From: Eledone cirrhosa
Lineage: Eukaryota
Assembly (NCBI GenBank): GCA_964016885.1
Contig: OZ024744.1
Coordinates: 58,962,001-59,026,000 of the forward strand
DNA: 64,000 nucleotides
Direction: 5' to 3'
The first letter of the stretch is position 1, and the number at the start of each line of letters is the position of its first letter. The position numbers and the translations under genes were made by a program. Positions 6,692 through 59,940 of this stretch are shown piece by piece. The notes below the pieces were generated by a model, which was given only the letters and a program-made list of their open reading frames with translations, ran no database searches and had not been told where the DNA came from.

Positions 6692-6889
6692 AAGTGGTTA
6701 CACAACAGTTAGTTCACCATTCCGAGAACAATTGTTTCACCTTAGCGGATACTCAGCTGAGGATCCGCTAAGGTGAAACAATTGTTCTTGGTATGGTGAA
6801 CTAACTGTTGTGTAACCACTTCTACCTAACTCGTCCCATGGACTGAATGTTCTACCACTACGGATATTACCTTCCAGTGTTCTACCACT
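6692..6889. mobile_element. Small inverted-repeat insertion in (TA)n: 130-bp loopless palindrome (6692-6821) plus a tail; probable PLE pseudo-LTR remnant
   Basis: Arms are symmetric about cagctg (6754-6759). Contains CTGAGGA...GAAACAATTGTT. (TA)n lies on both sides. Confidence 0.6.
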
Positions 6890-7079
6890 ATATATATATA
6901 TATATAAATCAGCATACAGAGAGAAGTACACATATGTGTTCAATCAAAGGGGATCAAAAACTTTTGAGTATGTCCAGTTGTTATAGTTATTATTGGATGG
7001 TTAGTACACTTTAATTTATTTTTTTTATTGATTTGTATTCACCTTTCCTTTCGTAGACAATAAGTTCATCTCTCTGGTG

Positions 7080-7440
7080 GTTTTTGATCTCCTATGATTG
7101 AACATGTATCTTTTATGTGTACTACTCTCTATATGCTGATTTATAAAGAGCCCAGAATCTATTCATACCCCTCACACCCTCTTGTAACAAGTTCCAGCCC
7201 CAGACTGATGTTAAGCACTTTCTGTATTGCATAAAACTCTGTATCTTCTTCCAAGGGTCCCTGATTTATTGATGCTATTCATCTTCAGAGTAAAGTGCCT
7301 GTTTGTCCAATATAATGTTCATGACAACCTTTACATGTCATAATGTATATTAGATTCATCAAGTTGTAAGAGAAGTCATTTTTGATTTTAAAGATGGGAC
7401 AGATTCTGCCAAATTTCGATGTTTTCCCATTCTACTACCA
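7080..7440 (-). pseudogene. Degenerate Penelope-like (Neptune-type) GIY-YIG endonuclease fragment
   Basis: Minus-strand translation KIKNDFSYNLMNLIYIMTCKGCHEHYIGQTGTLL*R* fits the LIY..CxxC..YIGQT pattern. Confidence 0.75.
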
Positions 7441-8007
7441 ATATAGCGAAAATTTTACTCAGGAAAAACGTATTAACAAGAAAAATTTTTTATTAACAAG
7501 TAAATTCAAGCCAAAACTAAATTTTGTACACAGTATAAACATTTCTTTTGATTAAAAGAAAAGTCTGAATTACGTCCCTTGAAATGAATCATATTCTCCT
7601 CAATATAAGCGACAAAGATAAAACCAGTTGTGTCTCTTGTGTTCAGCAAAAACATAAGAGGCCAACCATGTGGGCTGAAACAGAAATGAAAAACATTCTT
7701 TTTGAAAAGGCTGTAAATACAGTTGTAACTGGTAAAAGTAAACAACAAATATAAAAGATATATATATCATCAAATTACTTGGTACATTACATAACCAAAA
7801 GGTTAGTCATTGCATTTTCCAAACCCTGTAATTTGTAAAGAAATCCCTAACATTTTAATTTTCTCAATATATAATTGTGTATATGCACACATTCATTTAT
7901 TAATAACTGCTCTAAGTAGCACGGTGTTAATAGTTTTAAGTTAGTGCTAGGAAAAAATATAAAAGAGAGAAGAAACAGTATTAGTCATTGACTAAAATAA
8001 TATCGGC

Positions 8008-8818
8008 ACTTCATCTAAGTCCACTTATTCCTGGGAGAGTTATGGAGGCAGAGTCTTCAGACATGCTTTTCAGTGGGTCCTGTTAGTAGCAACCATCTCC
8101 AACTGGATCCTCCAAGCTAGACCAGCCAAGCTCATAAATGTTATCCAAACATCTTGCTCGGAGTCTACACCTTTGCCTGTAAAATCTGTCCAACAATTCT
8201 TTAGACATTCTAGCTATATATCTGTAGTATTGTAACTCTGACCTCTAAATGTGGAGAAGTTGTGGCTCTACCTAGAGCGATTTCCTGATCTCTGAGTTAT
8301 GCATTTCACATTGAGTAACAAACATTATTCCAAAGACCCATTGGAGGAACCCCATTTCAGTCGCTTGTACTTGCGATTGTATTCTTTCTCCTACCTTCCT
8401 CAATCGTGAACATGGCCCTACGATACTTGAACTTCTCCACCAAATTCAGTGTAACCTCACTCACATGCGAAGCACTGTATGGGAGTACGTGTCTCTGTTT
8501 TTGAAGCACTGATTTTCATTCTTGTAGTGCAGAACTTAGCATCAAATCTATCAAGTGAATGTCAGAGATCACCTTCTGATGAGTTAAGTAATACCATGTC
8601 GTCCACAAATTCCAGCTGACTCATCCCATACCTGTCAGCTATAATACCACTTCCAACCCAGCTGCATATGTCAATCCTGTCTATGATGATTATGAACAGG
8701 AGAAGTGATAGTATACACCCTTGACGGAGTCTGACACCCACATTGAGTGATTTTGACATAGCATTATTTATCCGAAAACACTTCTTCACAAACACTAGGA
8801 CACTTGTATAGGGACTTC
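8008..8818 (-). mobile_element. Degenerate RTE-like LINE of a second family, RT to 3' end
   Basis: ORF 8562-8795 contains VGVRLRQGCILSLLLF and QLEFVDDMVLL (RT motifs B' and C). Confidence 0.8.
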
Positions 8819-9045
8819 AAGGAAACAAGAAGTGATTGGAAGGAATGACAACCTCAATCTAAATGCAGACAAAGAGGCCTTATCAGACTTCTGTTCTAGT
8901 AATGGGCTCTCTATTACGAACACTTTTTCCATCACAACAAGTCAGTAATTGATATTTTTATCATCTCAGATCTCTTAAATTCTATATTAAGAAGGGACTG
9001 AGTTGTCAACTGATCACCATCTAGTTATATGTAACTTGAGACTAC
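8819..9045 (+). mobile_element. APE endonuclease fragment inverted relative to the adjacent RT fragment
   Basis: Translates to VIGRND.NLNADKEALSDFCSSNGLSITNTF and ELSTDHHLVICNLR. Confidence 0.7.
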
Positions 9046-9419
9046 CTATTTTTGAGTCTTTTGGCAAAATACATCCAACAACTTTGGACATATTTCAGCT
9101 TTAGATCTTCACAATAAAACAGCCATCACCATGCTTACTGTTGTAGTGATGGGAGAATCACTATGTAGATGAACAATATTGTATAACACTTCATTTATTG
9201 GCCTACAAAATTTTTTTTTTTTTAAAAGAATTACTTTTAGATGCCATCTGTATGAAAAAACAATAGTTAAGATATTGTTATATGTAATTCAGAGAATGGT
9301 AGATAGCTAACTATAAAAAAAGGGTATCCCTGTACTGTCCCCCACAATTAACATCTTTCCTTCTGTAAATTCTTGTCCTACTCAAGAGCAATTTTAGATT
9401 TAGAACCAAATGAAACATA

Positions 9420-58349: not shown

Positions 58350-58484
58350 TTTTTTCACACCTTTTACCATAATAACCTGTAGCAATACATTCACATTTGA
58401 ATGTTCGTCTTCTACCTGGACGTTTTATTTGACAACACACTCCACTATGTTTACACCTTCCTTTTGGACACAACCAGTCTTCAC
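58350..58484 (-). CDS. Internal exon encoding one EGF-like domain (gene unidentified)
   Basis: Acceptor ttttgtttttcag, donor gtaagt, 135 bp, phase 1-1. EDWLCPKGRCKHSGVCCQIKRPGRRRTFKCECIATGYYGKRCEK has EGF cysteine spacing. Confidence 0.85.
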
Positions 58485-58754
58485 CTGAAAAACAAAACCA
58501 CACTGACAAATGAGATTTATCCATCCATCCATGGGCCCTCAACCTCTGCTAGACTTGTAGAGGTGCTGTTGTGATATACAGTATGTCTTGGGTATATAAA
58601 TCTGGTGGAGCCCAACCCTTTCAAGGATTTATGTCAAATGGAACAAAACCGTATAATCCATGCTAGCGTGGAAGATGGACATTAAAAGATGATGATTAAA
58701 GCGGACGTAAAACGAAATGATGATGAAAATGATATATATATATATATATATATA

Positions 58755-59092
58755 TCATTTTCATCATCATTTCGTTTTACATCTGCTTTTCCCTGCTTGC
58801 AAGGGTGGGACGGGATTCTGGCTTGCTTTCTACAGCTGGATGCCCTTCCTAACACCAACCTCATTTACAGTGAGTGGTGGGTGCTTTTTTTTCGTGGCAC
58901 CTACACGTCCACTTTACAGTGGAATGATAGGGACCCCAGTCCCTATCATCTCATTTCTACAGCTGAGTAAACTGCAGCAATGTGAAATAAAGTGTCTTGC
59001 TCAAGGAAACAACACATCACCCGCTCTGAGAATTGAACTCACAACCTTTCGATTGCAAGGCCAATGCTCTAACCACTAAGCCATGTGCCTCC
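58755..59092 (-). mobile_element. Full-length composite SINE: tRNA head, CORE-like domain, hairpin, RTE-derived tail
   Basis: Minus strand A box TGGCTTAGTGG, B box GAGTTCAATTC, ccttgagcaagacacttt, hairpin atgatagggac/gtccctatcat, tail shared with the RTE 3' UTR, (GAT)n end. Confidence 0.9.
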
Positions 59093-59350
59093 ATATATAT
59101 ATATATATATATATATATATATATATATATATATATATATATATATATATATATACATACATACATACATACATATATATATATATATATGTATGTATGT
59201 ATGTATATATATATATATATATATATATATATATATATATATATATATATATATATATATATATATATATATATATATATATATATATATATATATATAT
59301 ATATATATATATATATATATATATATATATATACATATATATATATATTA
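59093..59350. repeat. (TA)n microsatellite with internal (TACA)n/(TGTA)n inversion
   Basis: Direct reading. Confidence 0.95.
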
Positions 59351-59710
59351 TATGTACAGATTAAAGTTTAAGCAAAGAATCGCCACTTGCACCCTTTTAC
59401 AGGATATGATATATATATATGTATACAATCCTTATCAAGCCCTCTTTGGATTTTAGTCTTCACATATATTATTACTGTATATATATATATATATGGTTAC
59501 TCCCGATTAAACCCGGGATACACATATCTATCTATCTCTCACTCTCTCTCTCTATATATATATATAAATTATGTTATTATGTTAGTAACATGTGGTTACT
59601 TGCAGTGATACTGGTCAAAACACTCGATGCTGATACGGGGTCTGTCTCACTCTTGTTTAAGGCAGCTGTAGTTTGCAGAGTGTATATATATATATATATA
59701 TATATATATA

Positions 59711-59940
59711 GTGACAATAAGAAGTCAGATTTCCAGGTTGTTATAAAACTTTATTGCATATGACAACTGTTTTGATATCAATCAGCTGGGACCACCCATG
59801 TAAACTCACATATCTAAAGAGGTGGCGATTAAGAGTTGGGATCCAATCGCCTGATCAAACCCAAGCTGATCAATATCGAAACAGTTGTAATATGCAATAA
59901 AGTTTCATAACAAGCTGCAAATCTGACTTCTTATTGTCAC
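59711..59940 (+). mobile_element. 230-bp inverted-repeat element in (TA)n containing a decayed hammerhead; probable PLE pseudo-LTR remnant
   Basis: About 77-bp imperfect terminal inverted arms; catat-CTAAAGA...GAAAC-agtt-GTA-atatg at 59809-59894. Confidence 0.65.

Follow-up and report, generated by a model that had tools for sequence, protein, structure and literature searches.

Endonuclease-bearing (EN+) Penelope-like elements (PLEs) are described as units that form head-to-head inverted copies and partial tandems, carry a tail at one end and a hammerhead motif in the pseudo-long terminal repeat (pLTR), and prefer (TA)n targets (Craig et al., 2021, PMC8557442; Arkhipova et al., 2013, PMC3846280). 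An adjacent inverted, 5'-truncated copy, often with the tail at one end only, is reported in PMC8557442, and an optional tail on one of the inverted pLTRs in PMC3846280. These papers favour resolution by the endonuclease (EN) or self-priming, and PMC8557442 calls the mechanism unresolved. Here, four inverted insertions, designated A, B, C and D, were analyzed in 64,000 nt of Eledone cirrhosa DNA (GCA_964016885.1, OZ024744.1, positions 58,962,001-59,026,000; hereafter the window), together with other copies of their families. The published features recur in this material, and B also shares the N-rich insert in the open reading frame (ORF). Every family has variable 5' ends and two fixed 3' ends, an outer site that ends the long-tail arm (L) and an inner site that ends the short-tail arm (S), and in A, B and C, three families from two clades, the combination of one L with one S arm is near-obligate. 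The tails measure 47 to about 140 nt, longer than the published 30-40 bp, and the pairing, published as an optional and often one-sided tail, is counted here. The inverted pLTR, the one-sided tail and the (TA)n bias were already known; new are the counts behind the one-long-one-short rule and the evidence that rules out fold-back as a general route. No count of L+S pairing was found in the literature searched, which covered neither older subscription papers nor supplements. Together with arms from the same source, the rule narrows the options for the mechanism.

In vitro, the protein of PAc, the Anolis Poseidon element (Frangieh et al., 2024; PMC11167929), cuts and extends both target strands, and reverse transcription has two internal starts, one at either boundary of the tail, on RNA left uncleaved by the hammerhead; the protein is predicted to be a dimer. 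The present families resemble PAc in their two tail-bounding start sites, which in B lie near the ORF start, and in their AT-rich target. They differ in that inverted products were not a subject of that study, the pairing of sites being known here from genomic copies only.

Loci were picked by the hammerhead region, which is common to both end types. For A, 100 loci were taken (the 30 best BLAST hits, the first 30 exact matches on contig C1 and the next 40 unpaired ones), for B 60 of 65 regions, and for C 40 of 63 regions plus eight fetched earlier; removal of duplicates left 92, 56 and 45 loci, respectively. Among two-ended loci, L+S made up 46/50 in A, 28/30 in B and 18/18 in C (p 2e-10, 4e-7 and 4e-6), or 92 of 98 combined, under a null in which independent end choice yields at most 50% L+S. 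Pairs missed by the probes, through subfamily mismatch or because they were split across two regions, were scored as single. D follows the rule in 9 of 13 two-ended loci. The tail between S and L is about 65 nt in A, 47-62 nt in B, 134 nt in C and about 140 nt in D. On contig C1, neighbouring matches were divergent rather than convergent in ratios of 27:0 for B (100 matches), 28:1 for C (95) and 9:0 for A (100). Single-ended copies carry either end (22 L and 13 S in A, 8 L and 17 S in B, 32 S and 4 L in D, where one further locus had no anchor). Insertions range from 114 bp to 8.9 kb, with A spans clustering near 200 bp.

Within the window, comparison of the sequence with itself recovered all four inverted structures, their 3' ends facing outward and TA-rich arrays flanking each of them, without mutual DNA similarity apart from simple repeats. 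This is as a preliminary description of the window had stated. Its coordinates hold for A, B and C; the left boundary of D lies at about 59571 and not at 59711, because the (TA)14 run there is internal and 59571-59684 is D's own long tail. The 110 nt outside this run recur behind the same TA run in other D copies. The asymmetry reported earlier for three insertions is thus real and extends to all four, each with one L and one S arm. Arm identity is 62/65 in A, 99.6% over 1137 nt in B, 99.3% over 604 nt plus 130/130 in C (a 52-nt later insertion lying in between) and 72/80 in D. The parts are as follows:

6692..6757, minus strand: A, S arm; inverted pLTR copy ending at the inner fixed site, core damaged (CTGAGTA)
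6756..6889, plus strand: A, L arm; core 6757-6786 without the 5' strand of stem I, tail 6825-6889
21168..21599, no strand: TA/TATG array left of B (target array)
21600..25207, minus strand: B, L arm; 3.6 kb of the 4147-bp PLE unit, tail 21600-21661, hammerhead-like core 21879-21906
22368-25229, minus strand: B ORF; N-rich region, reverse transcriptase (RT; YVDD), zinc-finger linker and GIY-YIG EN, frameshift near the end
25206..26341, plus strand: B, S arm; inverted EN fragment 25206-25817, 3' untranslated region (UTR), hammerhead-like core 26093-26120, stopping at the S site
26342..27530, no strand: target array of TA/TATG separating B from C
27531..28396, minus strand: C, L arm; tail 27531-27664 and, at about 27731-27875, a complete type I hammerhead whose stem II is long
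28396..30606, plus strand: C, S arm; linker/EN fragment of Hydra type at 28396-29092, a deletion inside the arm, and a 3' UTR of simple repeats
30611..35116, no strand: target array to the right of C, TA-rich, 4.5 kb
59571..59790, minus strand: D, L arm; tail 59571-59684, internal (TA)14 59683-59710 at the S site, 80-nt pLTR piece 59711-59790
59787..59942, plus strand: D, S arm; type I hammerhead at 59808-59895, decayed, with CTAAAGA as its core (59814-59820)

The inversion centre of A is a 4-bp palindrome near 6755-6758. An asparagine-rich insert at 24560-25100 in the B ORF resembles the rotifer Penelope inserts of PMC3846280, the EN region of C has a large internal deletion at about 29092-29109, and an N gap adjoins the TA array of B on its left at about 20.9 kb.

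The two arms reach upstream independently of each other. Among 32 B pairs the S arm extends further 5' in 14 and the L arm in 13, with five within 10 nt; among 57 A pairs, with 30 tail-selected loci in the input, S extends further in 16 and L in 23, 18 remaining, and in the window the S arms of C and D also reach further. These counts bear on fold-back, in which a complementary DNA (cDNA) or an antisense template would snap back at a short palindrome and copy itself, the S end being resolved by the endonuclease or by TA microhomology. Self-priming was proposed in PMC3846280 and the tail ascribed to EN resolution in PMC8557442; nearly identical arms and the palindromes or near-symmetric centres at many junctions would suit such a process. 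However, where the S arm holds sequence missing from the L arm, as in 14/32 B and 16/57 A pairs, and the tail is still on L only, neither arm can have been copied from the other, and in loci L334 and L063 the arm haplotypes are discordant. Fold-back is therefore excluded as the general route; improbable as an overall explanation, it may apply to a symmetric minority.

Both arms of an insertion derive from one source. In C, 1 of 188 diagnostic comparisons differs between the arms (24 pairs), as opposed to 1907/4243 (45%) between insertions; in B, 54 differences between arms were counted over 17753 bases (two loci, old or mixed, account for 36), and insertions differ from each other at 0.7%. The arms of B have a 10-bp deletion and other variants in common, locus L282 excepted. 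Such agreement also bears on the proposal that the pairs are assembly artefacts, stemming from chimeric palindromic reads in TA arrays, or that two insertions of unrelated origin share one array. Long TA arrays with inverted repeats are indeed difficult to assemble, and loci L282 and L283 look independent. Yet the L/S asymmetry is fixed, the arms carry arm-specific mutations and, in one C arm, a later insertion, and joints between opposite strands occur in contigs of other public runs, as do loose TA ends where L and S lie. No TA run separates the arms, B and C have a 55:1 divergent bias, and the arms share a haplotype, so that we regard this proposal as very unlikely. An A-to-I editing trace common to both arms, which would mark a single RNA, was not found: 1 A>G occurs among nine shared private variants of B.

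In L1 twin priming, reportedly put forward by Ostertag and Kazazian in 2001, the second target strand primes on the RNA and yields the inverted part. The two segments do not overlap there, and the second site is random. Tail-only L arms (loci L248, L331, L340, L301 and L306) fit this scheme, whereas usually the same pLTR is present in both arms and neither start site varies. The preliminary description, which had called the insertions twin-priming products whose ends are both element 3' ends, is supported in that both ends behave like 3' ends that were primed separately in a pre-existing TA target; L1-style twin priming is contradicted in most copies by arms overlapping for hundreds to thousands of bases, and also by the two fixed start sites.

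At 28 scored junctions (four were dropped at a poly-A run), the arms meet with 1-8 nt of overlap in 19 cases, bluntly in one and with short inserts in eight. Of 30 B loci, ten were informative about the strand polarity of the TA flanks and 20 were not; in nine of the ten, polarity is the same on both sides of the insertion, which means that the TA array predates the insertion. Addition of the arrays by the reverse transcriptase in the fashion of telomerase is unsupported, given this kept polarity. The 5' ends are concentrated on the hammerhead core or a short way upstream, not at its cleavage site: in A, 102 of 149 arms end between -110 and -61 (core -67), and in C, 24 of 58 between -220 and -181 (core -194). 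Our guess would be that transcription starts there. In D (L381:1270-1350 and D copies), a cluster of 5' ends, possibly where transcription starts, has a TATA-like box about 30 nt ahead of it. For a hot spot of B 5' ends near -300 no claim is made, since a poly-A run confounds it. At L385:1-1640, a long D tail stands head to head with the PLE arm of another family, through a mixed template or an insertion into the internal TA run of D.

Taken together, we consider it likely that each pair arises from two primings, one per strand of a (TA)n target, of which one uses S and the other L, with RNA from one source. The element protein would nick both strands of the array, and the two nicks would be extended on same-source RNA, one from the inner start (S) and the other from the outer start (L). 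Both sites would be used in one event, probably by a dimer and perhaps on one RNA molecule, and the two cDNA ends would be joined via 0-8 nt of microhomology or a few added bases. Failure of one priming would leave an ordinary single-ended 5'-truncated copy, and the hairpins of 0.2-0.4 kb would be the commonest dead-end products, halting just upstream of the hammerhead. A stricter form of this scheme is coupled double priming, in which a dimeric RT-EN on two start sites of one RNA copies it twice, once per nicked target strand. The inverted pLTR with its one-sided tail would then be the direct footprint of the reaction, and the thousands of hairpins of 0.2-0.5 kb would be copies of the transcript's own 5' end; this we propose tentatively, giving it somewhat less than an even chance. 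A variant differs in template number: two RNA molecules from the same source locus would be used, one per subunit of an asymmetric dimer whose subunits are fixed to S and L. Arms that overlap for kilobases suit it, and a few A pairs and locus L385 resemble mixed templates, but it requires a built-in asymmetry and leaves near-equal 5' ends at random positions unexplained, and we think it rather unlikely. Such near-equal ends occur in B, where 5 of 17 long pairs stop at most 75 nt apart, as compared with 0.65 in permutations (P 0.00025).

Several observations weigh against paired priming from one source. The thresholds of the last comparison (75 nt and 400 nt) were picked after viewing the table. 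In vitro, start sites showed no difference between the strands (PMC11167929). With about half of the loci single-ended, a second priming cannot be obligatory; the idea that all insertions have a minute inverted end on the other side was rejected for B, in which just 1 of 24 single-ended copies has a short inverted end, while several D copies have one. Exceptions to the pairing rule comprise two LL and two SS insertions in A, two SS in B, with unequal arm ages or complex layout, and S+S in 4 of 13 D loci. In five of 21 A pairs the arms disagree at either or both of two sites that mark subfamilies, and in L334 at several; a single pLTR template does not explain these. Arm homogeneity could alternatively stem from gene conversion or from one active source locus in the cell. 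The near-symmetric palindromic junctions (A in the window, L007, L029 and L215) are equally compatible with fold-back. Finally, the loci come mostly from contig C1 and from young copies.

By sequence, all four insertions are 3' ends of EN+ PLEs, representing four different families. In the 3.0-Gb genome, patterns of 30, 29, 30 and 31 nt with at most one mismatch gave 7363, 4196, 1750 and 92 matches for A, B, C and D, respectively, and reversed controls gave 0; D is an older family (about 90% identity) with 1094 BLAST candidates. A copies extend upstream into RT and EN coding sequence, e.g., at locus L225, whose RT has 42% identity to that of C. C copies carry an RT-EN ORF of 765 aa (loci L222/L230). 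B is a 4147-bp unit that occurs in tandems, its tail running into the next unit and its ORF beginning just before the short end. D is continuous via a 1-kb UTR with an EN ORF in loci L412, L422, L424 and L427 (36% to the EN of C); the linkage reaches EN only. A single ORF with PLE-type RT and GIY-YIG EN was thus found for A, B and C, and D is placed by EN alone; pLTRs in tandem or inverted arrangement with a tail were found as well. Pfam gave weak support: RVT_1 was hit on B at E 1e-4 (window and L211), under the Pfam cut-off, GIY-YIG on C at E 0.006, and four of five full proteins scanned, the full C protein included, had no Pfam hit. Atlas neighbours at 0.95-0.98 are RT/HTH_animal/GIY-YIG clusters; for C (0.96-0.98), HTH_animal/GIY-YIG occurs in 25-100% of members.

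Assigned by motifs and not by a tree, A, C and D probably belong to the Hydra clade (PMC8557442, section 11), with which they share a C-terminal EN, the CxCX5C linker, hammerheads, (TA)n insertion, and CxxC and CxH around the E/N residues of the EN. The linker and the CxxC/CxH motifs are present in C and D; A has the linker GCSCRKPEAC in L022, L158 and L159, the first C being altered in L225. Of the N-terminal RT motifs, DKT is found in A and C, and RWR stands for RWK in C, the covered sequence taking in both motifs for C and DKT for A. Unlike the clade as described, C has a simple-repeat 3' UTR of several kilobases, and C and D have hammerheads with a long stem II. B appears to be of the Neptune/Nematis type: its CX4CxxC linker ahead of a C-terminal GIY-YIG falls within the pattern CX2-5CxxC. 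The YVDD core of its RT and the microsatellite target agree with this, whereas no clear stem I is seen in its hammerhead. Naiad, which has its EN at the N terminus and does without a canonical hammerhead, was the first guess for A and C and was rejected, the EN being C-terminal in all four. Non-LTR retrozymes, the tandem non-coding derivatives of a recent preprint (10.64898/2026.07.22.740005), consist of tandems of short hammerhead units; copies of A, B and D instead lie dispersed and are 3' ends of coding elements; in B tandems the repeated unit is the full 4.1 kb, and one C locus has tandem ends of 2-3 kb. At L220-L221, C ends are clustered at this 2-3 kb spacing, followed by two hairpins. 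In a segmental duplication, D plus flanks (locus L032, G000:C28:54435071-54435300) recurs on the same contig at a distance of 4.6 Mb. In themselves, the elements are ordinary PLE debris from new families of known clades.

Mobilisation of the hairpins by a DNA transposase, as non-autonomous miniature inverted-repeat transposable elements (MITEs), is suggested by their short, terminal-inverted-repeat-like look and by the A spans near 200 bp. However, lengths vary as given above, the junction differs per copy, the two ends are not alike, and in all four families copies continue into PLE coding sequence; neither a fixed length nor equal terminal inverted repeats, a constant target-site duplication or a transposase partner was found, duplications being unreadable inside TA arrays. 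We consider this origin extremely improbable. The earlier suggestion that the small elements are minimal PLE products is borne out by longer copies linking A and C to RT and GIY-YIG and D to a GIY-YIG ORF, which makes the small ones truncated derivatives of autonomous PLEs; inversion breakpoints vary between copies, as expected from it, and the contrary pattern named there (fixed length and terminal repeats, a constant duplication and a DNA transposase link) was not seen. For annotation, the abundant short hairpin repeats of these families are PLE debris, not MITEs or microRNA genes.

A type I hammerhead motif in the pLTR is, on sequence descriptors, real at family level for A, C and D. The descriptor was passed by 88 of 156 A arms, 39 of 56 C arms, 18 of 60 D arms and 2 of 96 B arms, both of the latter by a junction accident; in the window it was passed only by the left arm of C (core at 27869, minus strand, 114-nt stem II) and one unrelated place. 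The preliminary description had seen a CTGANGA...GAAA core in each insertion. The family motif stands in A, C and D, and the motif is complete only in the left arm of C: the cores of A are cut at the inversion point, with loss of the 5' strand of stem I and CTGAGTA on the left, D reads CTAAAGA (family CTGAAGA) and has no CTGANGA, and the hammerhead of the C S arm (core 30348-30354) is split by the 52-nt insertion at 30425-30476. B has a core and a 6-bp stem II, without a clear stem I. Stem I sequences differ among A, C and D, and stem III is palindromic, in agreement with PMC4209133. No Rfam hammerhead model was among the hits listed (the best 150 of 214), and Rfam otherwise gave only microRNA-type hairpin hits below the gathering score. 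In the predicted fold, A is a single long hairpin that buries the ribozyme stems; because of this, and because cores are often broken, a ribozyme reservoir formed by the hairpin copies is doubtful; the dsRNA reservoir suggested earlier is hypothetical. The one public run guessed to be RNA contained short fragments only. Extra hammerhead-like cores at 6514-6537 (plus), 18810-18848 (plus) and 38906-38928 (minus) are probably decayed ends of other PLE families.

Hairpins in the window have several origins, and the wider claim that many hairpin MITE-like repeats are PLE products does not generalise: five other hairpins have no hammerhead core or are arranged tail to tail. At 58698-58789 and 3705-4176, inverted pairs of repeat ends resembling short interspersed elements (SINEs) have their tails facing each other across (TA)n or (GAT)n, the opposite geometry to the PLE pairs. 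The others, at 43937-44066, 50419-50623 and 51084-51156, are short, and none of the five has a hammerhead core; the hairpin at 43937-44066 lies in (TA)n and is MITE-like, with G/C-rich terminal repeats. Elsewhere in the window, 55024-55448 and 56841-57271 form a direct duplication of 434 bp (95%), and 61047-63186 is a tandem array of 26 copies of 82 bp.

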